Positions 21,968-64,000 are shown, counted from the first letter of the stretch. The stretch: 64,000 bases of DNA from Botryllus schlosseri (GCA_051294905.1 CM119372.1:5582001-5646000), one strand, 5' to 3'. The notes: a model not told the origin generated them from the letters alone. Numbers and translations are program-made.

Positions 21968-24900
21968 ATATTTCCAAGAGTACGACAGTTGATTTGTATA
22001 CTACTGATCCGTTGGAAACGTTTACTGCTTTATCGACACCCGCAGGTATTATTATATGTATTCCTTAAATTAGTCACGATGAAAAATATTAGGTATACAT
22101 ATATTATATATGTATAGCAGCTTCTTGTGTGTGTGCGTGTGTAAGCACGTCGCACTACCACCAACAATATGTGACAAATGGGACAACATCGAAGACAAAT
22201 ATGAAATATATCTTGATTGAACGTCATTGTGTTCAAACCGTCGGTCAGTGTTGGGATCAAGTCACTACCTCCGAGTCACAAGTCATCTCGAGTCATTGTA
22301 TATTTTGACTCGAGTCAAGTCAATCGATTTTGGAAAGTGACTCGAGTCGAGTCAAGTCACTCGATTTTTGGAGGTGACTCTAGTCAAGTCGAGTCAAGTC
22401 AAGACGAGTCAAGAGTCAAGTTGTATTTTCGAAACACGAGGCATGATTAAGTCATTGCATTTTGCTAGCTGTTTGATATTCAGATCGGTTCGCTATTCAT
22501 TATAAATCGAGGGATGAATATAGACTTATAGAGGTTAAATTAAGTTGCAAATAGGCGTTGTGCATCTCACGAATGCGTAGTACCCTATCCGCCAAAATAG
22601 AGAATAGAATACGAAACCGCAGGCAGGGGAAACGAATTGATATGATACATTATCCCACTACATATCCACGGTATACAATTTAAGCTGCGCCAATGCTTGA
22701 CTACAGTAATATAAACTTGTAAAGTATATTTAATATTGATTTAGATCACACAAGTGATCACCTAACCCTAATGGCCACTGACCAGTCTATAGAACAGAGA
22801 TCGATACCTTGTTATATTACTTTACTACTGCGAAAACGGACGCTCTAAGAGGTCAATGTGTTTGTGATAGACCAATGGAGGTTCAGTAAAACGCAAAATC
22901 ATTGAATGAATGTGATTTGTCACTCTCACAAGCCACACCAGCCTATCGAAAACAATCCGACTATTTGTAAAGAATACAGCGATTGTTATCGACACCGATT
23001 ACTTGATGATTTGAAATTGACTCGTAAAATTTTGCTCCGAGACACGAGTCAATCCGCATTTCTAAAACGCCGAGTCAAGCCAAGTCAAGTTATTTTTGCA
23101 AAGTGACTCGAGTCAAGTCAAGTCATACGAAAAAGGTGACTCGAGTCTGACTCGAGTCATCCCAACACTGCTATATATAAGTATCAAGTTATTATATACA
23201 TCGGATATGCTATGACTTCCCTTTTTGCAGTAGATGGTTGGAAATTGCTTCATTGCTACAAATTCAAATGCCAATAAAAGGCCTGTTTTCGTGATCTGAC
23301 ATACCGAACCACTGCAGTATACAGTGCGCAATTGCGAGACTATAGTGCTTGATATGTTGCAACCTAGGGTAATATATTAGAGCCACCTGGTCAATTGCCT
23401 GTAAGGTTGCGTTATAGCCAAGATCACCCAGTTCCTGATGTTATCCAGCTCAAACGTTTTTCAACTCGCGGACCGGTGGACTTTCAAAAAATTGAAATCA
23501 AACCCAAATGCCAAGTATGCAACCGTTTTTGCATGTATATGGTTCTAGAGAATGACATTTGGAGGGTTTTAATCGTTATTAGTTATATTCATAAAGGCAT
23601 CGATGCGATTTTACGGTAGTGAGTCTGCTGAGTCGAGGTAAAATTGCTTTGACAGATAAACGTGCTACCGCAGAGAGTCGTTTAAAGTCTTTCGCGCCGA
23701 AGGTCGTGGATTTAACCGACCATGCTAACTCGAAAAATATTCTTCTCTTCGGCAATATCGAGAGAAGAAGCATTTAGGCACCTTATCGAGCTAATTTGCT
23801 CATTTCCCACTACCACCAGACGTTGGGTACTCTGGCTACTACGAAAACAATGCGCCGCACGAAAACAGCTGACTACAGCTATAGCCTACCTGGCCATCGA
23901 CAAAATAGGGGTCGAAATAGCACTTTGTCTTCCCAGTCCCCTTAAAACCTTGGTCTTGGGCCCCCAGACCCCACAGTTGGATGGACGTCTTAATCAGTAC
24001 TTGTGAGCACGTTCATTCTACTCAGTGTAGGCAGAGGAGTTTGTGTAGCCTAAACACGCGAGGCGCGAAAATTTTCTATAATTCATGACTGAATCGGTCA
24101 ATAATATTGGTAATTGCATATATTTTGCTATAAATTTTGATTCTCTCAGAATTATCAGATTTTCCGGTAAATCAGAGTGAGGTGTCGTCTTGGAGAATTT
24201 ATGGCACGTAATTTATAATTAAGCGTATTTTGACGGGCCTATTGCAATAATTAATTCGTTCCATGCCTATTTCTATAAATCATGCGTATTTATCGGAGTA
24301 AGGGTCCTCAAATAATCAAAACATGTCGTGTCACGAAATCGGGCAAAGCGCGGCAGTTACGGTCCTGTACAAAATGAATGAATAGAAAACGAATGATCGT
24401 GCAAACTGCGTGGTTTAGCGAGTCAGCTCATGCTTATCGCTCGCATGACGTCAAAGGACACTGCTTGAACTTCAAGTCGAATCGAACAATTTTCCAGACC
24501 TATAATGTCACCTGGCAGACCGGCAGGAAAGTCGTCACGGACCGGCACTGGTCCGCGGACTGGCGGTTGAGAACCACTGATCTACCTTCATCAAAGCTTG
24601 ATGAATGAGGGATCGTTCTATTGCCACTGCTATAAATTGGAATTTTTTTAAAACTTTTGTGCTAAAGGTCAAACTGCATGAAAAGCTGTAGATACTGGTG
24701 TTCATCGAAAGCTATTAATAGCTTGGCCTCGTTATAAACGAGAAAGTCAAGAAAACGACATCTTATGTAGGCTACCTATGCTAAATACATTTTATACAAA
24801 ATAAACATATACGAATGTCGGATTACATGCGTAGCCTTGTAAGATGACCGAAGAATATTAGCAATAGTGTATTCTCGTTTAGCTCAATGTAGGAATCAGC

Positions 24901-26000
24901 ACCTTCTAAGATTGATTTCATGACGTCAAAATTGAACGCAATCGACTCTCCTGCAGACGCAATCGATAAGTGCCAATCATGTGAGACGCATAAACGAACT
25001 AGCGATTATATACCTGTTTCCGACATGAGTTGTCGTGTGCCAGCGGTGTAACGGTCATATATTTTATAGATGCCGACGAAACACTCGGAACTTCAGAAGC
25101 AACAAATATAGGTATGATCACATCCAAATATCACCCATTCTATCTCAAATGTGCATAGCATACTTTAGGTACAATAGTAGCGTGTTGCAATGTGCAATTG
25201 ATAGAAGATACGAAGTTTGTGTCATGCAAAATCAAGTTGTAACCTATTGAGAAATGTTATGCGACCCCAACTTTGGTCGCAGGATTGATTGGAGGGAAGA
25301 TGGTACATTTTCGTCTGCACGGTCGAGGTACTCCGACGATGAAGATGCGAATCAGCGATAAACCATTGTCACAGCTCCACGCTATACCGATGTGTGCTCA
25401 GTTGCCCGCCCCGTATAGAATTCACATAACAAAACCATAATCACCCTCATTAGAATGGGCTTCAGAAGAAGATGAAGAGACGTATAATTTATTGCGATAA
25501 AGTGACAGATCCCGTTCCTTTCAGGAGCAGCACCCATCTTCGAAACAAATAGTTATATTTGCACAGGATATATTCTCGGATAATTATCGTCAAATTACAA
25601 TAGAAAGATCTCGCAATTTGTAAATTGCGCTATTAGTTCTACGATGAAGTTGGAGCTGATACCACACATCTATCACGTAACAATACCATGTGTATGAACG
25701 CGAGGCGATCTGACGAAAGTTTTACGTCATAAAGTGGAATGAGGAGATCTGAATCACCTATCTGTAGGACCAAATGCTTTTATTTTATCATTTCAACTTG
25801 CTCATGAACATATTTATGCTGTATTCTGTGTACCGTAACGGAGTTATGATGCAGGAACACGATGTCAGTATGCTCCCCACACAAAAGATCAAAGCAGTAT
25901 CATCCCTGAATCGATATAATTGCGATAGAACAACCAGCATACCCTTTTCTATGGTAATCACAGACCGTGACGCTCCAGTTCCTTTTCATGTTTTGTTTTT

Positions 26001-26047
<47 letters not shown>

Positions 26048-27934
26048 AGGTCATTTGCTCCACGGCTTTAATTTAATTAATTTCATTTCATCAGGCCTTT
26101 GTAATGTTTCGCACGAATTCCATGCGCTCATACTTTGGGCTCGGCCCTTCACTCCGGGCTTTGGAAACACTGCTACGGCAGTTAAGTCAGCGATGAGGCG
26201 ACCAGAGAAACCTCTGAAACAAAGAAACTTGGTAGAGCCGAGACTCGAACCAACAACTATTCGAGTCGTGGTGATGTCGCTCTGCAGACTGCGCTACTCG
26301 CTTCTCCGAACAGTCCCTTATGAGAGATAACCGACCCCAATAGTTTTACAATACTAATAATAATATATTCTAATTTTATTTTCAGTTGTTATAATAATTC
26401 CGGTCATAATGGTGGCGCTACTGGTGGCATTGGTGGTTTTCTTATATTTCCGGTAATGTAGAGATTTGCTGCCGCTATATATGTAATGATGTGTATGACG
26501 AGACTTTTATTTTACAGACGCCGCTCACTCAGTGAAGAGGTAACAGGAAGTGCGACCGAAAAGTAAAAACAAATTCTTGAGTTCTGGTTTCAGTATAGAT
26601 GATCATAGTCTTTCCCAGATGTGGCCGTAGCAGTTACCATTATTACTAACAAAATAATTAAAAATAAATTTAGTGGAATGTTACTACTCTATAATTGCTT
26701 AGTTCATCCACATTCGGTATGCTTGATCGGACTTCTTTACATAAATATAGTGATTTAGCGCTGTCTGTCACTGAAATGATAGCTAATTGAAAATAGCAAC
26801 GATATCGAGTACATGAGTTATGGAATGTGAGCCATTCGTACGTATCAATTCAAATATCTTTCAACTACAGTTATACCCACAGTTTGCCCACTGCCCATGG
26901 GTACCCTATACCAGGAAGGAACGCACTAATATGTTTCCTTAAAATGTCAGATTCCACATACGTATCTAGATAGAGACTCTACACTACAGTTTACACATGA
27001 CAATTGAAGAACGACAACATTAGGGATTTGGAGATAGTGCCGTGGGCATGAAACATTCCATATACTTTACTTTGCAGGAACATCGTGCTCTATGACACTG
27101 TTGCACTGGAATCTACAACAGGTCAATGCAATGATAGCTATAGTCTGCCGCGTAAATCCGAACATCCCGTCGCGCCATATGAGTAACTATATACCAGACC
27201 AGGACAAATTGGAAACGAAAATCTTTGTTTAAATCTTAACAGATTCATTGACGATGCGATCGCGAAGTCTGGAGAATATCACACTTTGAAATTGGACACA
27301 GTTCCCATACCGTCTGACGGGGACGGATTATATAACAAGTAATCCATGTTCCGTTTCTCCTCTAGAATTGAATATTTAGGAAAATATTATAATAACGACG
27401 TAATGTTACCTGCATATTTGGAATACATTTGTTTTTGTGAACGAAGGTTAAACGAAGTAACTGGAAAACCATGGACCGCAAACACAAACGAAAATACAGC
27501 TAATAAAGACGACCCATATGCTGAGTAATTGAAGATGTTTTTATGAAGGGTAACCACAATGTTCGCAAGTACGGAATGCTTACGTATTTCAGGATTAAAG
27601 AGCCGACTGTCGCATCCCGAGAAGACAACAAGGATTCTACTGCCGATGATGACGATGACTGCACACGGTTAGCGATTGAAAAAATTCGATAGTTACTCAA
27701 CTTATAACGGAAGTAGCCTACACATTTTAGGTCTGAGGAGAAATCCAATGTAACTGGGGATCCTGTAGAATCGGAAACCGATGGACGATCGAATGATTAC
27801 TTCGAGTAACCTGACACTTCTCTTTACACGTGAACTCAAATAAGTCCTTTTGCTTTACATTCAGAATCAACCTGCCTAATACGGAGGATTTGTACGCGCG
27901 ACCAAACAAGCCGCAGAAGTCGACTAGTCAATAA
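21968..27934 (+). CDS. Receptor copy A (5'-partial, spliced): Ser/Thr-rich stalk, single TM helix and tyrosine-motif cytoplasmic tail of an IgSF-type receptor
   Basis: AG/GT-bounded exons keep one frame: 21968-22045 (DISKSTTVDLYTTDPLETFTALSTPA), 25070-25111 (DADETLGTSEATNI), 26386-26452 (TM VVIIIPVIMVALLVALVVFLYFR), 26518-26562 (RRSLSEEVTGSATEK), 27078-27182 (NIVLYDTVALESTTGQCNDSYSLPRKSEHPVAPYE), 27243-27338 (FIDDAIAKSGEYHTLKLDTVPIPSDGDGLYNK), 27447-27524 (LNEVTGKPWTANTNENTANKDDPYAE), 27593-27667 (IKEPTVASREDNKDSTADDDDDCTR), 27731-27805 (SEEKSNVTGDPVESETDGRSNDYFE), 27865-27934 (INLPNTEDLYARPNKPQKSTSQ*). Stalk, TM and first tail exons are paralogous to copy B. The Ig assignment comes from that paralogy. 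Confidence 0.85.
22246..23170 (+). mobile_element. hAT-like MITE, GAGTCAAGTC family
   Basis: TIR CAGTGTTGGGAT...ATCCCAACACTG with CTCGAGTCAAGT subterminal repeats. No TSD is visible in this copy. Confidence 0.85.
26004..26041. repeat. (CA)19 microsatellite
   Basis: Perfect CA run in the intron before the TM exon of copy A. Confidence 0.95.
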
Positions 27935-32231: not shown

Positions 32232-33214
32232 CTGCAGTTACGGATCTGGGTATGCTATAAAGATTATTGTCTTGGTCGCTGGTTTCCGAGCAGAGTGCGG
32301 CTTGGCGAAATGGCCTTGTTGTTGAGCCAAGCTTGCAGCTCTTCCGAAATATGACGTCCCTTGATCAAGTGTATGTTCTCGTGTTTTTGTCATAGAACCG
32401 ACTTAAATTATACTCCTTAATCACGGCGACCTGCTCGGAACTAACTACTAAAAAGACGGGTTGCCCCTGACTGCCCCTCCGAATCTTCTTTGAATTTCAA
32501 CTTAAGGCTTTCTTTTTCGACATCCTTTATGGGTAATGATGACTCATAGGAATAACGGGCACTGATCGACTTGTTCCACGAATTAGGGATTTGAAAACGA
32601 ATCACGTAGCAATTTGAAACACAGACCGTGAATTGCGTAATGTCACAATGGCAACAAAAAATGGTTTGGTGACTTCTTGTGACTTTAATTGTAACGGCAG
32701 AATTTGCTACATTTACTTTATTTTGAATCTGGATTACGCACGTGAGGTACGTATAGGCTGCGTAATGGCGGCATGTTAATGAACATGCTTGATAGTAAAC
32801 GAATTTGCGGTAGGCGTAAGTTATTAATACATCCTATGGTTTAATCCAGGCAGCAACATTAAAAAATAGGTTTAATATTTTGAATAGCAAGCAGCCTTTC
32901 GCGGGCCACACAGAATAGCTGCGAGGGCCGCATTTGGCCCGCGGGCCGCCCTTTGCCCAGGCCTGCTCTACGCAGTTGTATGAAACATGATTTACTACAA
33001 ATAAGGTATTCATTCAGGGAGCCTGATGTAACTGAAGACATCTCCTACGTAATACATTGAATGAGATAATCCAACTTACTCAGTGGATCCCAAAATTTTT
33101 GAGACACCCTTGCTTCGTGCGATAGTGAAAATTTTCATGACCCCTCCTCGTAATATAAATATAAATAAAAAGAGCAACTGCAGATTGTTTCCAATACAAA
33201 AGCATAGTTTGCTA

Positions 33215-47959: not shown

Positions 47960-49560
47960 TAATCAGTTTGGTATTGGTCAGTCAGATAAGCATAGGCTAC
48001 TGGCATCGATTTTATGAATTGGATTCGTGTATATAGTAGCCTGTCTTAACATGTCGGATGATGTCATAAAACGAGTCTATATCGGAAAGGCATTGGTGAT
48101 AGACATCATTTTCGCAGTACATCGAGACGATGGCAAGTGCGACCAAGATAAAATTACAACAATAACGGAACCGTTGTATTCTTTATTACTTTTGGCATTG
48201 ACTATATACACGGAAACTTGATTAGATGGGTTTGTGCCACCTATATATAAGGTTCCATTTGAAACAAATGGTTGTTTAAAACACTTTGTTTAAACATGTT
48301 GTAAAAAAGTGTTGTAAACATAGGTCGTTGAATTTTTTTTTCGAGTTGTATAATTATGCCATAAGTGTGTAAATACTTTCCAAAACATATGTTGTAAGAG
48401 TCTACGGACGATTACCATCCGATATAGCCGGATATGGGATGGTTAGAACACGCGAAATAGTCGGTTCAACATCTATAGTATGTAGATATAGATCGCAAAC
48501 TGCTGCATGACGATGTAATCCTGGACTCCTGGTTAAAGATATTTTTGATCCGTCTGTGACAGTGGTTGGAAACCTATAACGGCAAAGAGCGATATTTATC
48601 CTATATTTTAAATTGTCAATGTCAATCCACTATGACGCCACAATTGAATATTCGTGACGTCATTGCTTAAAAAAAACATGTTTTAAACAAGGGCCTTGTC
48701 CTAAACATTTTTGTTTCGAATTGATTTTTGTTTTAAACACAACCCTACCTATATATATATGTCATTTACATTAGACACGCCGACACCAGCCACGGATGAG
48801 CGTTTTGCTCTGGCATCCTTACGCGGCACTTTGATATAAATTTGTTTGTAACTATGTTTTCACAGTATATGAGTTAATGCATGCATGTACGGACAACGGT
48901 ACACCATAGCCTACATATCGATGTTAGTGAAGCGAAAGTCGTGAAGTGGTGTTTAGAACCACTGCGATAATTCGTGGTTGTATCTTACGGCCGATCTTTC
49001 GAAATATAGTTGTCATTGGAAACGTGTAATATTCAACATTTCCAATTCATTTCATGCGATGATGACGGTAAGTTTCTTTTGCTCACAATGAAACATCCCT
49101 AAATGTTTCTCCATCAGTAAATACATGTATTGTATTGTATCATAGAAGATATGAATTAGGAACTGAAGCCAAAACTGTTGACTGGACAATATCTGCATTT
49201 GATTGCCTGCGTCATGAATTCCGTCGCCAGCAAAGCCGTTATCACAGCTATCATAATATTCCTACAACGTCACGTCCTTGCTCGAGGTCAGTGAAATGAT
49301 ATACATGAAATATATGTGTGAGGGATCGACATCACCAATCCGAGATCGAAAAACCTCAATACAAATCTCAGTCTTAGACCCCAGTCTTCAAGAAATTTGC
49401 CTGGCAAGAAGAGTCAATTCAGGCTGACCGTGAATGGCAGTAAATGTCCAATGGTCGTGGATCTTAGCTGCCGAGATTCAAAATCATGAATCGAGCTTCA
49501 ATCCAATTTGATACTTGAGTTAAACTGTCAAGGCTATAGTTTGTTTCAAATTGTTAGTAA
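47960..49560 (+). repeat. Segment duplicated at about 55965-57225, upstream of each Ig exon
   Basis: Shared blocks include ggcatcgattt, tgtcggatgatgt/tatcggacgatgt, gtaagtt(t/g)ctttt...cacaatgaa and tgttgactgga(c/t)aatatct. Confidence 0.75.
48248..48747 (+). mobile_element. hAT-like MITE, TAGGGTTGCATTT family
   Basis: Degenerate TIRs, TSD CCTATATA. Confidence 0.8.
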
Positions 49561-51100
49561 TCTATTAGTGGCTCTCAAGCGTTTTGACTTCGCGGCCTGG
49601 TAAAACTTCAAAACAGATGTTGCGGCCCGGTGAATCTTCAAAAATCAAAATTAATCTAATTTTTTTTGTTATGTTCGTGCATTGTACGTTGGTATCGTTT
49701 GTTTCTTATTTGCCTCGGATTAGTAATTACCACCAATCATTATTTCCTCGTGTGTCGTGCTTCGTATTTTTACCCTGTGTTCTGTTGTCTATTTGTTTTT
49801 CGTTGACCTGCACTCAGGATCGTGTTGTCTGTCTTGAAGTTATTCTGCTGATAATATACTGATTTCATATTGCAACCTCGTCGCATGAGTTATTGTTCAA
49901 ACACGATTAAGAGCATAACATTAATTATGACGAAGGTATTGGAAACTTCATATAATATTGCCTTTTCGATATTCGATATTTATACGCTGTTCCTGCAAGG
50001 CGAAGTTTTAGCGACTGTCATTGTGAATGTTCTGTTTCCTTTGGAAGAGATGCGACTTAGCTGTTTCTATAGCCTCTAATATACTGCTGCGTGTCCCATA
50101 ATTGTACTGTCGAAATTTATCGAAGTTTGTTTGAAAGTCTCCGCAGCTCTCACATTTGAATGGTCCGAAACGAGTTGTAAAAAGTTTCATACAACACTTG
50201 TACGATTGTGACGTTCGGCCAAATTAGCCAGTGAACTCTCTCTTACCACATTATGCAGAAATATGCGTTCTAAATTTCTAAATCTATTTAAAAGTTAATG
50301 TCTCATCTTTTAAAATTAGTGGACAAGTGTCCAATTCGTCCATTTTGGTGTTTCGATATGAGATTATAATAACATTGACAGTATATAACTCGCCACGGCC
50401 CATCGGTTGAGAACCACTGATCCATATGTCAGACACACATGTCACGGAAATGCTCAATCTCACATCCTAGCAGATGATATACTGCTCATTGAATCGTATA
50501 TATACGCAATGGGTTACTCCAGGGGTTATGTATTTTGACAGTTTACACCTCTACTTAACAGTTCTGAGGTAAACATGCTTCATTTTTATATTGATGACTT
50601 TGTGAGGTATAGGAAGTAGGTTTGGAATATATGTTCCCATCATGGTTTCGAGAACCACCCAGCACGACCTCCTCAGTTAAGAGCTAAGTACGCGACCTCG
50701 CGAACCAGGCTACGTTTGAAAACTACTTACTGAATACTTTTCAAATGTTTTTTGTCGACTTCAACTTGAAGTATATAGGACATCTCTTGGAGATTGCTAT
50801 CCTTATTCTTGAAATGGAGTAGACATTTGCAGCGTTATTAATAATTCTCTTTGCGTACCAGCGACGACTATAGTTTGACAATTTTAGGATACATGTTCAA
50901 TGGTGACATCGGCAGTATAGACTTTTCGTTTATCGATCAAGTTCTCTGTTATCAACGTAACATATTTTCGCGGACTTCTCGTATGATATAAACAGGGCCC
51001 TATGGCTGCATTGATCGCATTGGTGTATCTGATCTCAGTTTGGGAGACAACTGAATATATTCGAATTCGCTTGATATCATTACGCAATTAGAACTGCAAC

Positions 51101-51950
51101 TAGGGTTGCATTTACAACATATATTGTTCAAAAAACTTAAAACATGTTTTAAATGCCTTTAAAAAAGAAAAATCGTATTTTTCTTGCAAACGTTGTAGAA
51201 GTATGCCATAATTGTGCAAATACTTTCGAAAAAACATGTAGCGAAATTAGTGTGTGTTCACACCCAAGGGGCCGAAAAGGGTGGTACACGAAAACACAAC
51301 CTAATTCAGAATTTTATCTCGGTTATAAAGCGGTCTTATGCCCACGTGAATACCTTCCTCCTACGTCTTCAAGTGCATGCATAATTTGAATTAAAACGTT
51401 GCACTCGAATTGTACCGCGGTATAATTCAGAGGTAGGTTCTGATTTCGTGTTCCATATACATGTATATTCACAGCCGTATAATAGGGGTGGTACACGGGT
51501 GGAGCTGGAAATACACATATTTTTCGCTAATAGCGATAGGATCCTACGGACGAATTGCACGCAATATAGTCGACGTTTGCGATTAGGTGTGGCTGGAACC
51601 CTCGAACTTCTATGGTCGGTTCCACAGTTATAGCACGTATAAATAGATCATTGACACGGAATGGGTGTTCTGTTCATGACGACCGCCGACCGTAAAAATG
51701 CTGCATAACGATGTAGTCCCGGTTAATTATGTTTTCGGTCTGTTTATGACAGTGGTTGGAAGCTTTTTTCGTGGAAGGTGTCATATTTTCCCTACAATTT
51801 CAATTGCCAATGTCAATGCACTGTGGCGTCACAATTAAAGATTCGTGACGTCATGCCAAAAAAACAACAACAATAAAAACGTGTTTTAAACAATGGCGAT
51901 GCTTTGATCATGTTTGTCTTAAATTGATTTTCGTTTTGAATGCAATCCTA
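51101..51950 (+). mobile_element. hAT-like MITE, TAGGGTTGCATTT family
   Basis: TAGGGTTGCATT...AATGCAATCCTA, TSD ACTGCAAC. Ends 35 nt upstream of the Ig1 exon. Confidence 0.9.
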
Positions 51951-51985
51951 ACTGCAACTAACAATTGGCAATGTGTACTCAACAG

Positions 51986-52264
51986 ATGATCTTTCGTTTT
52001 CCGGTAACGATGACGATGGATGTAAAATTATCCCGCTGGGCACTAGAAGCGATGCTGAATGTGTATCACTATCAGCATATGATAAGGATTTAACGTGGTT
52101 GCACGACGGAAGGCCGGTGCCTAATCTTCCGTCAGTAGGCAAGCAACCTGTTCAACAAATGGGTGGTCGATTGCACTTTTTCACCTCCGCGACTGTTCAC
52201 GATTCTGGTGATTACTACTGCAGTTCTGGTCGAGACGAAAAACTGTTGCAAGTCTACATTGTAA
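51986..52264 (+). CDS. Immunoglobulin-domain exon Ig1
   Basis: cag|...|gtaagt, 279 nt, phase 1/1. The translation has the canonical Ig Cys (AECVS), Trp (LTWLHDG) and DSGDYYC (DxGxYxC) motif. Confidence 0.9.
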
Positions 52265-55200
52265 GTAAGTAAATAGAACAAACTCCCTTTTCTAGTTTAT
52301 AGAAATTTGGAATGACACACACCTTGGGCATTATAAACAATCAAGGTTATTTTTGATGACTTCCGGCTTTCGAACAATTTAGGAACATTTTCACTATTTC
52401 GACTGTCACCTACAGATGTGACCGAGAATACGGCAGAGGAATTGTGTAATACTGATCCATTGGAAACGTCTACTGGTGCCACCACTGCTATTTCGACATC
52501 CGCAGGTATTATTGTTTGAATTCATTATATAGGTCACGATGACAAATATCAGGCGTAGGCTACATATAGATGTACACGATGTGTGTGCGAATTGGGTAGT
52601 ATGGATGAGGAGGGGATGGGGGTCGGAGGTTGGTGCCGTGGTAGTGAACTGCCGCCAAAGTGTACACGAAAGGGACCATATTGAATGTCAATTTTACTCA
52701 AACTCTTGAATATATATATGTTGGGTTGTTAAAATACCGAATGTGTCATGAGTTGTCATTTCTGCAGTAGTTGATTGGACATTGTTCTAATTAGAGGGGG
52801 CAGGTTTGGATACCAACGACATGACGCTTTTCGCTATGTGGCTTACCGATAACCCGTGGTATATTCCTCATGTACAGTACACGCGCGAGACTAGTGCTAG
52901 ACATAGCGATGCGATCCTTGAAAGTTCCTGGTTCGTGTGAACACTTGTTTATCTACAGGGCAGTTTTTTAGTGTGACTTGACTTGATTCGAGTCACATTG
53001 CAAAAATGACTTGACTTGTCTTGACTCGACGCTTCCGAAATGTGGATTGAATTGTGACTCGGAGCAAAAATTACGAGTCAATTTCAAATCATCAAGTAAC
53101 GGCGTCGATAAAAATGGCTGATTTGCATATATTCGGATTGTTCGCGATACGCTGGTGTGACGTGTGATATGAGCAATCACTCAATGATTGTGCGTATTAC
53201 TGAGCCTCCATTTTTCTATCACAAATAAATTGACCGCAAACGAAGTGATCCGAGCTTACAGCTTACATGTCGTAAACTAGTAGTAAAGTAATCTTATGGC
53301 AAAGTATCCATCTCTGTTCTATAGATTGTAGGCGATATCCACTTGAACCAAACCTCTTGAATGATTTAAACCGTATTTTAATACTGTATGTAAGTTTATA
53401 CTCGTCGACCATCGGCGCAAGCTTAAATTGTATCTCAAATGGGTGCAGGTGGCTAGTGCATTGCATCATATCGATTCGTTTCAACTTTCTGAGGTTTCGT
53501 ATTCTATTCTCTATTTTGGCTGATAATTATAGACTGCGGCTATACAGTTACTTTTAGGTAGTTTAGCAATTCTACGTATGCGTGTACGATAACACGCCTT
53601 TTTGCATGTTTATTTAACTGTATATTCGTCTCTTCATTCAAAATAAATGGCAACTTTCTATAACAGCTATTAAAACGCAATGACGTAATATATGCCCCGT
53701 ACTGTGACAAATCAACTTGACTTGAATTGACTCGACTTGACTCGAGTCACTTTCAAAAATCGATTGACTTGACTTGTCAAAATGTGCAATGACTCGAGAT
53801 GACTCTTGACTCGAAGGTAGTGACTCGATCCCAACACTGCTAAAGGGTACTATGGGAAAACGAATTTGAACACGAGCATTTGACTTCACATGACGTCTCA
53901 TTGCTAATTTGAAACACCCTGCATACTTTGTTATGGCATTTCTAACGGTACCAGACGATAAGCATTATGAGTAATTAGGTATATTTGCGATGAATTCAAT
54001 CGAGTTGTTCAATAGCGCAGGCCTTCAAACAATTCAGGAACTTTGTTAACTTTGCTCACAGATATAGCCGAAAAAACGACGTTGGGTTTGCATACTTCTG
54101 ATCCCTTGGAAGCGTCTACCAGTTCCGCAACTGCTATTGCAACACCCGCAGGTATTATTGTATGTATTCAATAAATTAGTCACGATGATGAAGATGATAT
54201 AAGCTTAAATATATGGTTATAGATGGTTTCTATACTTGTATGTTTACGTGTGTGTGTTTGCGTGTGCTGTGTCGGTATACCACACAATATGCGAAATGGG
54301 ACATTATTGAAGACAAATATGAAATATTCCTTGATTGAACGCCATTTTTATTCTTACCGTCGACTATATATAAGTATAAGGATGTTATAAATGTCGATGA
54401 TGATATACCGAATTTAGTTCATTTATGATGTTCGTATTTAGGTATTCTATTTTTTTGAAATAATTCCTGACCTGCCAAAACGCTATAGTTAGCGGAACCG
54501 GCGAGAGGAAAATACAAAATTAAAGCGAATAAATAAATATAATAATAAGTTCAGTTGCGAGGTAGCTCTGAAAACTCAATAATTCCAGAGGAGGAAAATT
54601 GAAATGAATTACCAAAAACAAGTTAAAAAATCGCTATAAACAATGAAAATTTAATAATTTAACTCGAAATAAATGAACAGAATTTTCAAATTTCGGAGGG
54701 AAATTTTCACAATATTTGCTTCAACAGAAAAAACAAACAGGTCGTGCGCGTGGATAAACTCAAGTCAAAAACTTCTCGCTACATCAGCGGGCAGCATCAT
54801 GGACTCATTATATAGACTAGTGAAACGATATTAAAAACTGCTGAAAGGAAATGGCTAATTGTGAGGTCCAACAAAGTCAAGTACGTCATGATATCATCCA
54901 TTGAATTTCACTGTAATTCAACCTATAACAATCCAACTAATAACAGTCGCCGTGTATTTTCAAGTAGGATTGGTTATGTAATTGCGGATTATATGCTCTA
55001 GGACAGTGATCCTCAACCTTTCTGTCTTCGCGGATCACTTTGGACTGTCATGGACCCCAACACACAATTTTAGTTCAAATCTAGCTCTATTATCGTGCAA
55101 CCGTCATCTGTCTTGTGTAATTATTATTTTAAAGCGAATTCTGTAGCTGCGTGGCCGTGTCTTGAGAATTTTTGCCGTCGATTTGATACGAACGAATGCC

Positions 55201-58200
55201 GAAAATACATTTCCACAAAGTTAGGTGATGGCGAATACACGTAACTCTTCCGACGACTCCTTTGAGTATGATCGCAACATATATGGCACCAATAAAACGC
55301 CTAGCCTAATAATTTCTATATCTATAGCAGCTCATATCGAAGGTATTCCGGAATAATGGCTATCGATATCACAGGAGAATATGGATTTCTGCCAAAAGGT
55401 TTTTCCCAATACCCGAAAAACTTCTCTAAACAGTGATATGTTTGAATAAGTAGGCTATTGGCAATTTAGGAAAAAAAATTCGCTCGGAAGAATATTTCAT
55501 CTCCGACGACCAGTCTGTTTATGACCAAGTTTCAGCAGTTATGAAGCGAAAGTGCTTCGTGACTTCTCTAATTTAAAATAAAATACGTATTAGTTTACCA
55601 ACCATTTTGCAAATTTGAAGGTTTCGTGGCCCCCCTGAAAATGCTTCGCGGACCCCGGCTGAGACGACTGCTCTAGGAAAACTCTAGAACAGTCGTAAGT
55701 TCTTAACCAGGGCACGCCTCTCAGAATTCGAGGAGCACCAGAGATTCATTTACTTCCTGGTTTTACCATTGTTAATAAAGTAGCACATCATCATCATTGC
55801 ATAATGGTTAGGAACACAGTTGTGATATCACCTTACTAATTGGCATCGTCACTAGCTGACGCAACCACCGCAAGTTACTTACACGGAGAATTATCAAACG
55901 GCTGTTCTTTGTTCAATTATTGGTTTGAAATACAACATTGACCGACATTGCGTATATGATCTTAATTACTTGGCAATTGGTTAGTCAGAAAGTTCGGCAT
56001 CGATTTTAGAATATCATTTGCGGTACAGCCTATATAGGGCTATCTTACAATATCGGACGATGTTTTAAAATAAGAATATATTGGAAAGACATTAATTTGT
56101 GACTATCATCATTTGCGCATTATCGGTATGTGCGACACAGATATCAGTACGGCAATCAACGGCAACAGCAGATATAAGTACGACGTTCAATACACCAATC
56201 AACGGCACTTTTGCCTTTTTTTGAAGTTCCTATTGACTGTGGAAAACGTTGTATGATTGGTTTACGTTAACTGTATATGTCATTTTCATTCAGCAAGCCT
56301 GTCACCACTCTATAACGAAGTCTTTTACTGTAGCACATTTACGCAAGGATTTATAGCAAATTTACTTGTAACAAGGTTCTGATAGTTTATATAGTTTATT
56401 TTATATATAATACTTTATGTATGGTAATTCATACTTTTCATATCGAAATGAATGTCCGGCTCAGTGTCTAACAAAATGTGTGCCTTGAATCATGGCATTT
56501 TTATCGTTTTGGAATATTGCTAAACATAGTCCAGTTGTTGTGCATCGCTGCCATGCCATGCGCTTCGAGGTGCGTCTGAAATCAATTCCATATAACTGAG
56601 AAGGACACGTTGGCTTTTAAATTTTTAATATATTAACGAAACGTAACTCGTGGTTGCATTTTATTTATCGTAGGTCAGCAAAGCGTTTTGAAATATCTTG
56701 CTAAACAAGAAATAATCTTCCGAAATATAATTTTTCTTTTGCAAATATATGCATTTTATTTCATGGAAAGCTGATAGTAAGTTGCTTTTGTTCACAATGA
56801 AGCCTACTGCAGATTCTAACCATCCGTAAATACATACATAGAGGATATGAATGTGGAATCGCAACCAACGTTGTTGACTGGATAATATCTACATTTGATC
56901 ATCTGTACCATGAGGCCCTCCGCCAGCAACACTGTATTTGCTATCGTAACAATCCTATCACGACATGTCCTTGCTCAAGGTTAGCAATATATATATAGCC
57001 TACAATAAACATGAGACGGATCGATGGAGTACCAATCCGAAATATAAGAATCCAAATATAATTGCAGTCTTCTAGAACGCTAGCTGGCTCATTTGTAATC
57101 ACAATGAACACATAATGGTACTGCTCCTTTGTTGTAGATTTGGTCGGCGCGAGATCTGGAGTACTTACATTTGAGATCAAGAATTGAGCTTGTAGAAAAG
57201 TCAATAACCGCGGCTATAGTCTGTTGCTCATCTACAGGGCGCGTTCAGACACGCAATTCGTACCTTCTGACACTCTCATCTTCATCGAACTACAGATAAG
57301 ATATTCGTCATCGAATCCAATGTATATATAATAGGCTTGTTCAAAAATAACTCATTTTTCCGGTTTCCGGGGATTCACTGACCAAATTTGGCTCGATCCC
57401 AACTGGTAGATGAGAATATACAGGAGTTTACATATTTTGAAGTTATTATAAAATATAATAAAGATTTTTTTATAATGACTTCAAAACCCCATGATGCTGG
57501 TAAGTTGTCTAAAAGAACGATGCTTACCAATTTTTGCTCACTTCCAACCGGTAGAGCCTAAGTTATTGCATTTGACAATTTTGAATTTGCAAAAATATCC
57601 TGGACGGTGGGCAATCGCAGAATTTTGAATGAAAAACTCAAATAAAGTCGCTTCCACGGGTTGGAATTGCGTCAAATCTGTTTTGCACCGTTATTTAGAC
57701 AACTCGACAATTTCTTGGCGTTAACAGTGAAATTTGAAAAGAAAATTCAAAATCGGTCAAAATGAAATAAAAAGTTATAAACTCCTGTGCGTTCAAATTT
57801 ACCGGCACTATGGCTATTACTCCAAAATTAAAAAAAAGATGCAACTGCTCCTTCGGGTGTAAGCATTACCGGTTATTTGCGACAGAAAAGGAGAGGCTAA
57901 GGCCAATGTTCCCTCTAATTTTTCAGGAGTCTGCGCAAACACGCCAACTCACTGCGCAGGCCCTCGGACAACAGTGCGCAACCACCCCCCAATAGGGTGA
58001 TAAACCCAACTACTGGGGGGCTTCGCCCCCCAGACCCCCCACACGGCTCTAGGCTTCTTCCGGTACCTATCATGTGCATTGGGTGCCGATCTAGTAGTAG
58101 CGTCCCTAAACGCGCGAAGCGCAAAAAAAATTCTATAATTTATTATTGCATCGGCCAACATAACCGGGAATTGCATATATGTTGCTATCAATTTTTATCC

Positions 58201-61200
58201 TCTCCCTGCTCACATAATCAGATTTACCGGTAGAGCTGATCCAGTGAGGTGTGTTGGAATAGATAGGCCCTCTAAATAATAATAAAACATCTTCGGACGT
58301 ACCCGTTGATATAATGACTTCGTTACATGATGCTATTTCGTGACCCCCTATCTGCTATGTCAAAAGATATTTAAATCGCCATAACTTACTAAAGTAAAAT
58401 ACGTACACGATTTCAACTTGGTATTTCTTAACTGGAAAATAATGTTCCCTCGATATGGCATTTGTCTTGTTGTGGGACTCGGATCGCCAGGACGGGAACA
58501 TTCGGCGCCAGCCATTTAGGCGCCCATGGACATGGACATGGACATGGACAATTACACAAATATTTGTATATATTGAAGTTTTCGGTCAGCACCGAAGCAG
58601 TCTTTTTCGCCCAACGTTTTCTCGCTGCTGATCGTTCTGGCGCACTTCTTGGATTCGCATGTTACACAGCCTTTAATTTCATATGTCTTGGCGCGTCATG
58701 GTGCGGTAATGGCCGACGCCCAACTGCCCATTTCTGTATATCATGCCTAATTTTTTGGGGAAAGGTTACCCAATAATCAGATATCTGACAATAATAAAAC
58801 GCGCTTAGCGCGAAAAAAAAAATCCTGAAAAATTTCAAAAAATACATCATGATTTATGTTAATTCTCGAAATAATCCAATCGGAGGGTTTGCGGTGCGAA
58901 AGTTACGGTCCTGAGTAAATCTTACGCAATGTTCATGCCACGCGAAGAAGACTATCATTTGTTAATTTCTCGCAGATTACCTTCGAGCTAGCCTATTGTT
59001 GTTTAAAACTTTGTTAAACCATGTTATTTCGCCATTCCCAGAAAATAATGCGCTATAGAAATGATATCAGTATCGTTCACGTGTACCAGGCCATACTAAA
59101 ATAATATCTTCCGTGAGGAGCGGGTGATTATGAACTGTAATTTCTTCACGGAGCGCAATAGTTACCTTCGCAGGGCGCACTTGTACCTCGGTTTCAGACT
59201 TCAGTGATAACACTATTTGGCCCTGGCAATGTTCCATCTTAATACTCACGAATCTGCGCGCCTGCGTGGTCCATTGGACAACAGTGCGCAACAACTTAAA
59301 AAAAAAACATCATTTCGGATTTTTTTGTGCGCATCGTAGATTTTCTGTGCGCAGAGACCGTTTCAGCACTGCGCATTTGCGCACGTGCGCAGCTTAGAGG
59401 GAACATTGGCTAAGGCCCTAACTACATCTTTATACCCCTGACGACGTAAGATGCTATGGTAGAGTTGCTTTGGAATGAGTCAATATCCATTTTACTATAT
59501 TCATTCCCTCTGCTGATATTATCTTTTCACGAATTTATATATGTTTTGTTTTATATTTCTACATATAAATATATCTGTTTGCAACGAACAACACTTTCAT
59601 ATTCAAATTCTGTACCACATGGAACCTATATATCTTTTTGTTGAATATCTACTACGTCATACATCTATACTACAACTCCTTCACTTAATTACATCTTACC
59701 TTTTATCCACTACTTTTCCAGATTTTATGTTACATTATATCTACCCAAAATACCAATCTTTGGATTTTTGTCGGTAGGGTTAAGCCCACCTATGACAGCT
59801 TACGGAGGAAGATCCGTTGGCTAAAACACCAAATGTCTTGTTTATCGCTATATCTTAACGACATATCTACAATTAAAACTCCAACAAGAACTTTGGTGGA
59901 TCCATCGCGCTGTCTCTATACTGCGCCCTTACGGGCGCAGCTCATAGTTTTTGTGGCTATGCTGCCTTCGGCAGCTTATCACTGAGCCAAATTGGATGCA
60001 CAGCGTTTAATTAATCAAGTTAACAATTTAATCAGTAAATCTCTGAAATCTAGAAAAAAAGTTATTTTTTGACAACACTAATCTTCTTTAACATATACAT
60101 AATAGTAGGCTACATTATATTATGTTAAAGATATAGGGGTTTTATTCTAGCAATAACACATTTACTCGCAAACAATAGATTTGGCGACAATACCATGATT
60201 GGTCAATTGCATTCAGTTTGTTAGAAATGTGCTGGATAATCCAAGCGTTTTTCCATTTACTTGGACTTACTTTACGGGCCGGATGAAGCCTTCTGACGGA
60301 CCGGACGCTGCCTGCGAGTCGTATATTTGACACCCCTGATCTAATATTTATAATTACTACGCTAGAGTTAGGACACTACCTACTGCTAAATGTTTCAGTG
60401 GTGATGTAATGCATTTCTTTGTTCGATGGAGTTCTGTGCTATAAATCAACGCAATGTATGCTTGGAATTAACGCGTTTGGTATAACTTATTACCTTGAAT
60501 ACATTTGCAGTCGTTCGATATAAACAGATCAGAACTACAGCTAAAAAATGACAACGCGTTCCCGATTGCAGGTAGGGTTGCATTTAAAATAAAGATCAAT
60601 TTAAACAAACCTGTTCAAAACATGGCCCTTGCTTAAAACATGTTTTTTCTAGCCATGACGTCACCAATCTTTAAATGTGACGTCATATTGAATTGGTATT
60701 GAAAATTAAAAATACAGGATGAATATGGCTTCTTCGACGAAAATGACTTCCGACCACAATCATAAACAGACCAAAAATATCCTTAACCAGGACTATCGTT
60801 ATGCAGCATTTTTATGGTCATCATCAGAACATCCATTCCTTACTAATTATTATATATAACTACTTGCTATAACTGTCGAACCAACGACGATTTCGAGGGT
60901 TCCAGCCCCTCCATATCGTATACGTCGACTATATTGGGTGCAAATCGTCCATAGGCTCATACTGCATGTTTTCAAAAAGGATTTGCACAATATGGCAACA
61001 CAATAATTTCATATGCACAATAACTATAGAACGTCTGAAGAGAAAACACCTTTTTTTTAAAAAGGCATTTGTTTAAAACATTGTTTAATCAGACATGTTT
61101 TAAAAACAAATTGTTTTAAAACACCGTTTGTTTTAAATGTAACCCTAATTACAGGGGATCTTTCGTTCAACGGGGATGATGGTAATGGATGTAAAACCAT

Positions 61201-63630
61201 TCCTCTCGGCACTGGCGGCACGGTGGGTTGTCAGTCATCATCAAACCAAGTTTTAACCTGGTGGCTTGACGGAACGCAGGTGTCTGAGTATAATACAGCA
61301 GAACCTATTAGACAAATAAACGGACAATTATACATTTACGGCTACGCGACTGTGGAAGATTCTGGCGATTACTACTGCAAGTCCCAAAATGAGGAGAAAT
61401 TATTGAAAGTCTGGATTGTAGGTAAGTGAAGAACGTTCGGTCTGGTTTTGCTGAGGCAACCAACTCGACGGGGAATTGTATGGTATATTTCCTAATTTTT
61501 ATTTATTTTGCCAAATTTCACTGTTTTTTGTGTAAGTTTCATGATGACGAACATATATTACAATCATTGCGCTAGCGCGAACCTGATAAGAACTAAAGTT
61601 GCGCTTCACTGACCAAACCAACTCACTTTTATTGTCGTCATGAGATTTCGAACATTAGAAGCAATTGTGTATATTTAAGATGAATTCGAATGATTGAAGA
61701 ACAATTTCATCATATTCATTTTCGTTTGCAGATATGTCTGATAGCACCACAGTTGATTTGTGTGTTACTGATCCTTCGACACCCACACGTCCCACAGGTA
61801 TTATTGCATATTAAGGCAGTCGCGGTGATATGGTGATATGGTGAATCACGACAAAATTCAAGTGAAAAGTGTGTAAATCAGGAGTCGAACGAAAGTAATA
61901 ACCTTTTTTTAGACAACTCCTCTAATTTCCAAGCAAAAATATCAAATTCCGTTGTCTTGATCAGCTGACTTTTCTGAATTAGTTAAAGTGTCCCCCTTTC
62001 CCGATTACAAAATATGGTTACCTTGCAACAACTGACGATAACTTTCATACATTTCGCAGACGACAGCGTCACTTCTGGGACTTCAGAAGAATCAGATATA
62101 GGTATGATCAAAACCAGCTATCATGTGCTACATCGAAAAGGTGCAACATGCGTAATTTTGTAGGCAATGAACAGGACAATGAATTTTTATGTATTCATCA
62201 GTGTTGGGATGACTCGAGTCATGACTTGACTCGAGTCACACTCGAGTCACCTTTTTCGTATGACTTGACTTGACTCGAGTCACTTTGTCAAAATGACTTG
62301 ACTTGACTTGACTCGGCGTATCAGAAATGTGGATTGACTCGTGACTCGAAGCAAAAATCACGAGTCAATTTCACGTCATTAAGCACTCGATGTCGATAAA
62401 AATCACTGTATCTTGCAATCGGATTGTTCGCAAAACGCTAGTGTAACCCGTGAGATCGACCAATCATTCAATGATCGTGCGTTTTACTGAGCCTCCATTG
62501 TTCTCTCACAAATAAATTGACCGCTTACGAAGTGATCGAAGCTTACAGCTTACGCTATCGTAAACTAGTATTGTAATGTATTTTAATAGAAAAATGTCTA
62601 TTACTGTTCTCTGTACCTGAACCAAACCTCTTTCTTGAAATTAAATTCGAAGATAGTTTATATAGTCCTCGACCATTGGCGCAGGCTCGAATTGTATCAT
62701 ATTCATTTGTAAATGTGTCATGTATTGCATCTTATCAATTCGTTTCTCTATTCTCTATATTGGCTGGTAATTATATACTGAGGCTTTGCCGTTATACTTG
62801 CGTAGTTCAGCATTTCTACGTATATGTAAGCGATACAAGCGCCGTCTTACGTGTATATTTACCTTCATATTCGTTCATCGGTTCAAAATCAATGACCAGT
62901 TAATCTGTATTTCAGACAGCTAGCAAAATGCAATGGCGTAGGCATTCGGAAAATGCAACTTGACTTGAAATGTGACTTGACTCGTGACTTGACTTGACTT
63001 GACTCGACTTGACTCGAGTCACCTTCGAAAATCGATTGACTTGACTTGACTCGAGTCAAAATGTGCAATGACTCGAAATGACTCGTAACTCGAAGGTAGT
63101 GACTTGATCCCAACACTGGTATTCATCGCTAGCTTCACGTAGAAATAATACCTTCTGAAATTGATTTTGTGACGACGATGAAACACAAAACTGTAGTCTC
63201 CAACAACTGACTATAACTTTCATATATTTCGCAAACGAAAACGACACATCTGGAACTTCTGGAGAAACAAATATAGGTATGATAGAAACCGGATATCACA
63301 TGTTACATCGAAAAGGTGCAACATAGAATAATGAGTGGCGCATCGAGTAAAAAACACGTAGCATCCTATAATGAACAACATTCCTATCAATCGAGAAATT
63401 CGAATCATATGTAGTTCGTCGTCATTCAATTGACATACATTCCAATTGTATTTTCAGTTGTAATCATAGTTCCGGTGATATTGGTCGCGCTTCTGGTGGC
63501 ATTGCTGGTTTTCTTATATTTCCGGTAATGTATAAATGTCCTGTCGCTAAGTTACGACATGTGTGACGACACTTTCATTTTACAGACGCCGCTCTCTCGG
63601 TGAAGAAGTAACAAGTAGTGCGGGTGAAAA
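51986..63630 (+). CDS. Receptor copy B (partial, spliced): Ig - stalk - stalk - Ig - stalk - stalk - TM - start of tail
   Basis: Phase-1 exons: 51986-52264 (Ig1), 52416-52505 (NVTENTAEELCNTDPLETSTGATTAISTSA), 54062-54151 (DIAEKTTLGLHTSDPLEASTSSATAIATPA), 61155-61421 (Ig2), 61732-61797 (DMSDSTTVDLCVTDPSTPTRPT), 62060-62101 (DDSVTSGTSEESDI). Then 63458-63524 (TM VVIIVPVILVALLVALLVFLYFR) and 63586-63630 (RRSLGEEVTSSAGE). The tail should continue beyond 64000 because intron 63631-64000 matches 26563-26940. No confident start exon was found. It could be two gene units rather than one. Confidence 0.75.
52961..53839 (-). mobile_element. hAT-like MITE, GAGTCAAGTC family, one end degraded
   Basis: Reverse-complement copy; TSD CTACAGGG/CTAAAGGG (7/8). 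Confidence 0.8.
55004..55670. mobile_element. hAT (Charlie-type) MITE
   Basis: CAGTGATCCTCAAC...GCTGAGACGACTG, TSD CTCTAGGA. Confidence 0.8.
57332..60080. mobile_element. TIR element hosting a nested hAT
   Basis: TAGGCTTGTTCAAAAATAAC...GTTATTTTTTGACAACACTA imperfect TIRs; a related start lies at about 11728. No TSD was seen. Confidence 0.5.
57904..59408. mobile_element. hAT-like element
   Basis: TIR CAATGTTCCCTCTAA...TTAGAGGGAACATTG, TSD GCTAAGGC. Confidence 0.9.
60573..61147 (-). mobile_element. hAT-like MITE, TAGGGTTGCATTT family, inserted at the Ig2 splice acceptor
   Basis: TAGGGTTGCATTTAAAA...TTTTAAATGTAACCCTA, TSD ATTGCAGG/ATTACAGG (7/8). Opposite orientation to 51101-51950. Confidence 0.9.
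61155..61421 (+). CDS. Immunoglobulin-domain exon Ig2
   Basis: cag|...|gtaagt, 267 nt, phase 1/1. GDLSFNGDDGNGCKTIPLGTGGTVGCQSSSNQVLTWWLDG...ATVEDSGDYYCKSQNEEKLLKVWIV; paralogous to Ig1. Confidence 0.9.
62199..63118 (-). mobile_element. hAT-like MITE, GAGTCAAGTC family
   Basis: TIR CAGTGTTGGGAT...ATCCCAACACTG, TSD GTATTCAT. Confidence 0.9.
63235..63276 (+). pseudogene. Duplicated 42-nt stalk exon with a dead acceptor (pseudo-exon)
   Basis: Copy of exons 62060-62101 and 25070-25111 (DENDTSGTSGETNI, donor gtatga intact). The upstream sequence is tttcgcaa instead of tttcgcag. Confidence 0.7.
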
Positions 63631-64000
63631 GTAAAAACGAATTCTTGAGTTCTGGTTTCAGTATAATTGATAATAGTCATTCTTAGATGAGGCCGAAGCA
63701 ATCACCACTATTACAGAAAAAAATTAAAATGAAATTTGGCGGAATGATACCATTATATAATTGCTTAGTTCATGGACATCTGTTATGATCGATCGGACTT
63801 CTTCATTGTTAAATATAGTGGTTTAGCATTTTCTGTCACAGAAATGATAGATTTAATTGAGCATAGCAACGCTATCGACTACAAGTTGTGGAATGTTAGC
63901 CATTCGCACATATAAATTCAAATATCTTTCAACGACAGACCCACAGTGTCGCCATTGTCCTTGGGTAGCATATAACAACAAGGAACGCACGGATTTGTCT

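Follow-up and report, generated by a model that had tools for sequence, protein, structure and literature searches.

The window considered here is a 64,000-nucleotide stretch of the Botryllus schlosseri genome (GCA_051294905.1 CM119372.1:5582001-5646000), which consists of intron-rich animal DNA of about 40% GC without long open frames. It contains a gene, termed copy A, whose last six coding exons (c2 to c7) specify a tail with eight tyrosines, together with two related copies, B1 and B2, that lie downstream on the same strand. The coordinates 27078-27934 correspond exactly to the six-exon block, including the TAA stop of the final exon. Read without splicing the block has stops in all three plus-strand frames, whereas the spliced version is open and gives a tail of 181 residues that is rich in Asp, Glu, Thr and Ser and contains exactly eight tyrosines. 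The original prediction had placed eight tyrosine motifs, from VLYDTV and DSYSLP through YEFI, GEYHTL, YNKL, YAEI and YFEI to DLYARP, in one cytoplasmic tail at this position; all eight are present in that order, and they form a single tail once the six exons are joined, rather than one unspliced reading frame. The predicted product of the six exons is the disordered cytoplasmic tail of a protein that crosses the membrane once, and in the gene they follow two stalk exons, a transmembrane exon and a first cytoplasmic exon, c1 (Table 1).

All six junctions of the tail are predicted GT-AG junctions in phase 2, with an intron of 515 bases ahead of 27078 followed by introns of 60, 108, 68, 63 and 59 bases, and the internal cytoplasmic exons are without exception multiples of three in length (45, 105, 96, 78, 75 and 75 bases). 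Half of the motifs (VLYDTV, DSYSLP, GEYHTL and DLYARP) are found wholly inside a single exon, and in the other four the residue at +3 from the tyrosine is supplied across a predicted junction (YE|FI, YNK|L, YAE|I and YFE|I). A tyrosine lies no more than two residues upstream of four of the six junctions (P 0.0004). A hexamer of the ATTAAA/AATAAA type is located at 28076, on the 3' side of exon c7.

Table 1. Exons of copy A and the related copies B1 and B2, numbered from the first letter of the window
Feature	Position	Strand	Characteristics
Ser/Thr-rich stalk exon 1, copy A	21968..22045	+	78 bases, phase 1-1, open; 73-79% identical to the B1 and B2 stalk exons
Stalk exon 2, copy A	25070..25111	+	42 bases, phase 1-1; identity to the B2 counterpart only 67%; joint 25109/26384 (GT..AG) in X1, X3 and X4 contigs
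Transmembrane exon, copy A	26386..26452	+	About 21 uncharged hydrophobic residues, then Arg-Arg-Arg; flanking joints in contigs of three of four runs
First cytoplasmic exon (c1), copy A	26518..26562	+	45 bases, phase 2-2, no Tyr; joint 26451/26517 (GT..AG) in X1, X3 and X4; both splice sites kept in B2
Tail exon c2	27078..27182	+	105 bases, phase 2-2; VLYDTV (Tyr codon 27091), DSYSLP (27139), first half of YE|FI (27178); predicted junctions
Tail exon c3	27243..27338	+	96 bases; GEYHTL (27277), second module of the x9 ITAM-like pair; first part of YNK|L (27331); predicted junctions
Tail exon c4	27447..27524	+	78 bases; first part of YAE|I (27517); weak AAG acceptor, in-frame rival acceptor 27366; predicted junctions
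Tail exon c5	27593..27667	+	75 bases; acidic, no Tyr; Cys codon 27660-27662 at the Tyr position of c3, c4 and c6; predicted junctions
Tail exon c6	27731..27805	+	75 bases; first part of YFE|I (27798); predicted junctions
Last coding exon c7	27865..27934	+	DLYARP (27893), TAA stop
Copy B1	49214..54151	+	Signal-peptide-like exon 49214-49286, Ig exon 51986-52264, stalk exons 52416-52505 and 54062-54151
Copy B2	56910..64000	+	Signal-peptide-like exon 56910-56979, Ig exon 61155-61421, stalk exons 61732-61797 and 62060-62101, transmembrane exon 63458-63524, first cytoplasmic exon 63586-63630; tail past position 64000

The residue at +3 is I, L, V or P for every one of the eight tyrosines, a pattern that was reached by none of 100,000 shuffles of the tail; this set of residues, which is the usual one for the +3 position of SH2 ligands, was picked after the tail had been seen. 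The form Yxx[ILV] fits six of the eight tyrosines (P 0.0003 in 20,000 shuffles, with the same value for Yxx[LIMFV]) and Yxx[LI] fits five (P 0.0001, 20,000 shuffles), whilst the four motifs that are independent of splicing give a P of about 0.002 by themselves. An acidic residue is found within four positions upstream of six of the eight. No YxN, YxxM, YxxQ or core-2 motif occurs in the tail. With all eight tyrosines followed by I, L, V or P at +3, the tail therefore looks, as far as its sequence can tell, to have been selected for SH2-type docking.

The original prediction had also read the tail as that of a dual-sign receptor, in which VLYDTV was taken as an ITIM (immunoreceptor tyrosine-based inhibitory motif), the YEFI-x9-YHTL pair as a relaxed ITAM (immunoreceptor tyrosine-based activation motif) and the acidic YxxL/I sites as resembling the hemITAM. 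VLYDTV is indeed the one match to the strict ITIM consensus [ILV]xYxx[LV], although such a match arises in 11% of shuffles (P 0.11), and no second ITIM or ITSM (immunoreceptor tyrosine-based switch motif) was found in the tail. Its pY+1 residue is Asp, not the small non-polar residue associated with SHP1 docking. A SHP1 site is described as being defined by a medium-sized non-polar residue at pY+1, polar or charged residues being less efficient, and tandem ITIM/ITSM arrangements are said to be used by many receptors (Xu et al., PMC8631942). The core of VLYDTV reads equally as a Nck-type YDxV site, the motif through which nephrin is reported to recruit Nck (PMC11247170). Because the sole ITIM match occurs at chance level, carries Asp at +1 and can be read as YDxV, the dual-sign label is weakened.

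The canonical ITAM, Yxx[LI]x6-8Yxx[LI], has no match in the tail, and the YEFI-x9-YHTL pair fits only the wider form Yxx[IL]x6-9Yxx[LI] by which the ITAMs of the Hydractinia Alr proteins are defined (PMC9546547). It is the single ITAM-like pair of the tail, a pair with a spacer of 6 to 12 having a P of 0.015 by shuffling, and the predicted c2|c3 boundary falls inside its first module, YE|FI. In every classical ITAM the first module is described as split by an exon boundary (PMC4536121), and in vertebrates the intron responsible is described as phase 0 (PMC2110893). Since the splitting intron of copy A is in phase 2, the likeness speaks for resemblance and not for common descent. The final two tyrosines, which are 12 residues apart, follow the pattern of the pair once more, with Pro at the last +3. 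The hemITAM likeness did not hold, as the pattern [DE][DE][DE]xYxxL, taken from the paper on the Botryllus FcoR receptors (PMC12582321), has no match and two sites have only a looser acidic context. What survives of the dual-sign receptor is thus a member of an Ig-receptor family that spans the membrane once and has a putative phosphotyrosine-docking tail; dual signalling itself is possible, though without support in the sequence beyond loose consensus matches. Even the word receptor is borne out by the family, with its signal-peptide-like and Ig exons in B1 and B2, and not by copy A, for which neither exon is detectable in the window.

The exon model was set against an enumeration of splice paths that was blind to motifs and that yielded 1,405 paths, ranked by length. 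The six-exon model is the 14th longest of these, and the longest consists of all six exons plus one 75-base candidate exon. Four of the eight longest paths take an acceptor at 27366 and skip c3, and four end at 28040 in place of 27865; because these rival acceptor and end paths are placed so high, the six-exon model is likely to be correct though not unique. The acceptor at 27366 is in frame and stronger than that of c4 at 27447, and if spliced from the c2 donor it would add 27 residues that include several tyrosines. The 108-base intron (27342-27446) is open in the tail frame past its first stop. The 75-base candidate exon, at 26871-26945, lengthens the frame and was set aside on account of its weak donor and of a 4-base gap in B2. 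An origin of the tail exons by tandem duplication was not established, as only the c4/c5 comparison, the best of 15 pairs, exceeded shuffled sequences (6 of 300 reached its score). None of the six tail exons matches a Pfam family, and exon c2 gave no usable match in the Atlas.

The regularity of the exons has consequences for alternative splicing. Because the internal exons are all multiples of three in phase 2-2, no skip disturbs the frame, and all 21 forward exon pairings are open and in frame. Exons c4, c5 and c7 open with Leu or Ile as the first full codon, so that most skips rebuild Yxx[IL] for the modules that end c3, c4 and c6. Five of the six introns, if retained, bring an immediate stop and the loss of the +3 residue of the split motif; such a stop is not in itself evidence of selection, because GTAA donors in phase 2 give it automatically. 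Exon c5 departs from its neighbours in that several Asp in a row precede a Cys codon at its end, and the exon after it opens with Ser, not with Ile or Leu. This Cys is possibly a decayed ninth dock.

Evidence of transcription comes from sequencing runs, of which a search returned 24 rows, four of them with part of the stretch (shares 0.28, 0.05, 0.24 and 0.21) and none listed as RNA; one of the four, with a small share, was left out of the comparison. Four runs were compared over 8600-28500, X1, X3 and X4 being represented by contigs of RNA type and X7 by raw reads, with about 6% of the run read; 15 of the 169 joints were listed. The two GT..AG joints that connect the second stalk exon, the transmembrane exon and c1 are present in the contigs of X1, X3 and X4. 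The whole of the 42-base stalk exon forms the short side of the first of these joints in the X3 and X4 contigs and, because it is only 67% identical to that of B2, sequence identity assigns these contigs to copy A or to a relative that is closer than B2. The joint between stalk exon 1 and the next exon is not among the joints listed. In X1 the depth is 3.2, 9.2 and 9.2 in bins whose exonic fractions are 0.21, 0.49 and 0.37, the low value belonging to the bin that contains the 515-base intron, which fits the removal of this intron.

Other transcribed or repeated sequence was met in the same region. A separate spliced plus-strand transcript occupies 10680-15143, with GT..AG joints 10680/12960, 13039/13220 and 13325/15143 in both contigs and raw reads; it is probably multi-copy, and its exon 13223-13327 matches no Pfam family. 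Near-identical contigs of three runs cover the stretch 18493-19846, and at 18113 a loose end matches sequence near 8062-8091, which suggests a minus-strand or repeated transcript on the 5' side of copy A. A short element at 26152-26257 is about 800 raw reads deep in X7, has many loose ends and resembles a tRNA-derived repeat, although ARAGORN found no tRNA gene in it. A repeat family of high copy number, whose members contain GAGTCAAGTC-type iterations, is found at 12074-12403, 22245-23159, 29295-29758, 31722-32234, 52965-53842 and 62196-63121, several of its copies being located inside introns of the receptor genes. Between copies A and B1 there is a direct repeat pair of about 1.3 kb (35879-37169 and 38104-39355, 78% identity).

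The ectodomain of the family is known from copies B1 and B2, whose Ig exons give sub-threshold matches to Pfam Ig_3 and Ig_2. A model of the family Ig domain, built from three sequences, has a predicted local distance difference test (pLDDT) score of 87, and its best structural matches are I-set domains such as NCAM Ig1 (Z 11.8, root-mean-square deviation 1.5, 81 residues aligned), with Robo1 Ig5 and FGFR2 domain 1 also among them. The Ig fold with its Cys-Trp-Cys core is borne out for B1 and B2, not for copy A. Two further family Ig domains, at 56% identity, were found as single-exon frames in other contigs. A third Cys, near the N-terminus, is invariant in all four family Ig domains (for example at 61157-61420 and 51988-52263), and the first stalk exon of both B1 and B2 contains a single Cys, at a position that is occupied by Tyr in copy A. 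The third Ig Cys could pair with the stalk Cys in B1 and B2.

No transmembrane exon was found for B1 ahead of copy B2, so that B1 has the front half of the gene without the membrane exon, the complement of copy A without its front half. B1 may encode a secreted form, or it may be a duplicate that has been truncated. At 63215-63290 B2 holds a second copy of its 42-base stalk exon, in which the acceptor is CAA instead of CAG. A possible decayed Ig exon of copy A at 19715-19816 (tblastn E 0.04) was recovered neither by nhmmer nor by a four-sequence profile and was rejected. A CD3-like identity for the Ig domain was likewise rejected: three of the four family domains give only sub-threshold Pfam matches to CD3 epsilon, CD3 epsilon is absent among the structural matches listed, and CD79b, at Z 10.6, appears near many I-set domains.

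Protein searches gave no named close relative of the family. The Ig domain of B2 had no relative among 26 longer candidate proteins, and two of the 21 proteins of similar length compared with the Ig alignment were related, both of them single-exon frames. A search of representatives gave 117 matches, one of which is a family member and the rest generic multi-Ig proteins at 20-40% identity; two of three generic matches that were looked up are CD22-like and IgSF1-like vertebrate proteins. Metagenome scans found no match to the transmembrane-exon pattern and no relative among 591 pattern matches. No paper on the family was found in the literature, with subscription journals and the FcoR SI Appendix outside the search.

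The favoured explanation, which is given about an even chance, is that the tail of copy A acts as a multi-site phosphotyrosine dock on a single-pass protein belonging to a tandem family with one Ig domain, and that its role would be mainly activating or adaptor-recruiting rather than that of a demonstrated ITIM-plus-ITAM switch. Clustering through the Ig domain, or through a partner should copy A be without one, would bring a Src-family kinase to the tail, and this kinase would phosphorylate several of the sites. Of the sites in the tail, the YEFI-x9-YHTL pair would best suit a tandem-SH2 kinase of the Syk or Shark type, whilst YNKL, YAEI and YFEI may represent single sites in an acidic context that contribute avidity or engage Src-type SH2 domains. 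YDTV, YSLP and YARP may recruit adaptors of the Nck, Crk and Abl type and, through them, actin. Splicing could set the number of docks on the tail, because exon skips are frame-neutral and intron retention stops the tail. Homologues of Src, Syk, SHP-1, SHIP, Crk and Grb2 are reported to be expressed in Botryllus, the first five in its vasculature (PMC12582321).

A number of observations weigh against this explanation. No signal-peptide or Ig exon of the family was found in 1-21967, either by nhmmer or by a four-sequence protein profile run over stop-masked frames, and the 125 open frames of at least 45 residues in that region gave only two unrelated weak matches to Pfam. G is missing at -1 and +5 in five of the six tail donors, and c4 has a weak AAG acceptor. 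No joint inside 27078-27934 is among those listed, X7 has no reads at either of the joints that flank the transmembrane exon in the 6% that was read, and the binned depth does not distinguish splicing of the short introns from their retention. The spacer of the ITAM-like pair is nine residues long, and its intron is in phase 2, not phase 0. Finally, no paralogous tail was obtained, and neither of two longer proteins compared with the frame containing c2 was related.

The same observations can be read in other ways. A true dual-sign receptor, in which VLYDTV recruits a SHP phosphatase, Syk is drawn to the x9 pair and the single acidic sites, and phosphorylation or splicing decides the output as is reported for FCRL3, is considered unlikely. 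The strict ITIM and relaxed ITAM occur together in just 0.3% of shuffles, and the ITIM-like site shares exon c2 with the first ITAM half, the other sites being in separable exons. A precedent is FcoR4B, which is described with an ITIM and a hemITAM-like motif in a single tail (PMC12582321). The joint frequency, however, is driven mostly by the general excess of Yxx[ILV]; with I, L or V at 25 of the 181 tail residues, a hydrophobic residue at -2 of one of the three Yxx[LV] sites is expected, by the present arithmetic, about one third of the time. The Asp at pY+1, which is disfavoured for SHP1 in the account of PMC8631942, and the lack of a second ITIM or ITSM in the tail also count against this possibility. 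Copy A might instead be a 5'-truncated and still transcribed relic of a birth-and-death array, with motifs inherited from a working ancestor and little or no protein at the membrane. The lack of front exons on its 5' side within the window fits such a fate, as do the partial state of its neighbour B1, the stalk-exon duplicate of B2 with a broken acceptor near 63236, the replacement of the stalk Cys by Tyr and the presence of other spliced transcripts in 10680-15143. This reading is nevertheless rather improbable, given that all ten exons of copy A are open with intact GT-AG sites and that spliced contigs specific to its stalk exon occur in three runs. The ratio of non-synonymous to synonymous change (dN/dS) between A and B2 is about 0.28 over the 36 codons of the transmembrane exon and c1 (Fisher P 0.03), and the absent exons may lie before position 1 or vary between haplotypes.

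The missing front half would be accounted for differently if copy A had no ectodomain at all and started at an in-frame ATG in its membrane exon (26409-26411), as a transmembrane adaptor lending tyrosines to receptors that have no signalling tail. The ATG, flanked by A at -3 and G at +4, stands where B2 has TTG (Leu), no upstream signal or Ig exon was found in the window, and eight putative docking sites are carried on an acidic low-complexity tail. Just 14 hydrophobic residues follow this ATG, however, and exon 25070 opens with an ATG that is out of frame. LAT-type adaptors have a palmitoylated juxtamembrane Cys and Grb2-binding YxN sites, and copy A has neither; the transmembrane segments of A and B2 contain no charged residue for pairing of the DAP12 or FcR-gamma type. 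LAT and SLP-76 homologues are reported to be absent from ascidians and an adaptor has been postulated for fester (PMC12065747), which speaks for such a protein, although the idea is improbable on the whole. It is very doubtful that a tunicate has independently evolved a splice-tunable signalling chain with tyrosine modules split in phase 2, in which exon skips would take away or re-pair docks in frame and retained introns would silence them, and that copy A, after losing its signal peptide and Ig exon, is in addition an ectodomain-less adaptor created by the new start in the membrane exon; if this were true, copy A would represent a type of subunit whose existence in ascidian immune receptors has been postulated without one having been found. 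The Yxx[ILV] motifs could also be unphosphorylated sorting signals of a rapidly recycled adhesion or scavenger protein, the AP-2-type consensus being Yxx[LIMFV], to which six sites conform. This is highly unlikely, since sorting needs only one or two sites, two of the tyrosines have Pro at +3 and the acidic residues upstream of most tyrosines fit kinase substrates better.

The multi-site dock can be compared with several known systems, among them the fester co-receptors (FcoR) of Botryllus schlosseri, likewise tandem genes of the immunoglobulin superfamily with several tyrosine core motifs (PMC12582321). FcoR genes are described there as tandem, copy-variable and type I, and ITIM and hemITAM-like motifs may occur together in a single tail and replace one another through intron retention, as in FcoR3 and FcoR4. 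Clusters with a head-to-head Fester-family partner are reported on chromosomes 5 and 11 and unpaired FcoR genes on chromosome 9 (PMC12582321). FcoR tails contain at least two YxxI/L/V core motifs; that of copy A has six such sites and no paired core-2 motifs, and its C-terminal YAxPNK context recurs near the membrane in FcoR4/25/46. The FcoR ectodomain, by contrast, is Ig-Sushi-Ig-Ig, whereas B1 and B2 have one short Ig domain and Ser/Thr stalks. The 68 open frames of at least 45 amino acids over 47500-63500 gave Ig matches only on the two Ig exons and none to Sushi, bearing in mind that divergent domains can escape Pfam. Nine short sequence words of the family were not found in the file of FF/FcoR sequences, in which line breaks of the PDF can mask matches, and a tenth (IPLG) occurred in an unrelated context. 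The copy A family is accordingly not a published Botryllus FcoR, being set apart by its ectodomain and its sequence words, not by alignment.

Further afield, the Hydractinia Alr proteins are also clustered invertebrate Ig-family receptors, the x9 pair agrees with their form of ITAM, and some putative Alr genes are described without a signal peptide (PMC9546547). They differ in having V-set, I-set and Fn3-like domains (PMC9546547) and in belonging to another phylum, and no sequence similarity appeared in the searches made. The vertebrate FCRL2/3/5 resemble copy A in that motifs of ITAM-like and ITIM-like type are combined within a single tail, and for FCRL3 dual modulation has been demonstrated, but they are reported to have 4-9 Ig domains and established phosphatase binding (PMC4950983), whereas copy A has one weak ITIM match. 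CD3, CD79, FcR-gamma, DAP12 and the ITAM-bearing CEACAMs share with copy A a first tyrosine module that is split by an exon boundary (PMC4536121, PMC2110893), and the small single Ig domain of the family, with its weak CD3-epsilon matches, recalls the ITAM signalling subunits. These subunits are described with a spacer of 7 instead of 9, an intron in phase 0 instead of phase 2 and an acidic transmembrane residue (PMC4536121, PMC2110893). As its transmembrane segment contains no acidic residue, copy A is not a subunit of the CD3/DAP12 type. Nephrin also has YDxV in the long multi-tyrosine tail of an Ig-family membrane protein, but with three such sites and a large ectodomain, against one YDxV among mixed sites in copy A (PMC11247170).

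The locus thus holds a statistically unusual multi-tyrosine tail in a small Ig-receptor cluster that is apparently undescribed, and copy A may be without its ectodomain. The dual-sign idea is not itself new, since FCRL2/3/5 and FcoR4 already have mixed motifs. Enzymes of ITAM and ITIM signalling exist in invertebrate chordates, yet few receptors able to use them have been described. The FcoR proteins are the main published set of this kind in Botryllus, and a second, unrelated family with one Ig domain and an eight-site tail would widen the list. With each dock in a frame-neutral exon of its own, the tail provides a clear object for testing, and its split-exon likeness to vertebrate ITAMs, though in another intron phase, is relevant to the question of a single or a repeated origin of these modules.

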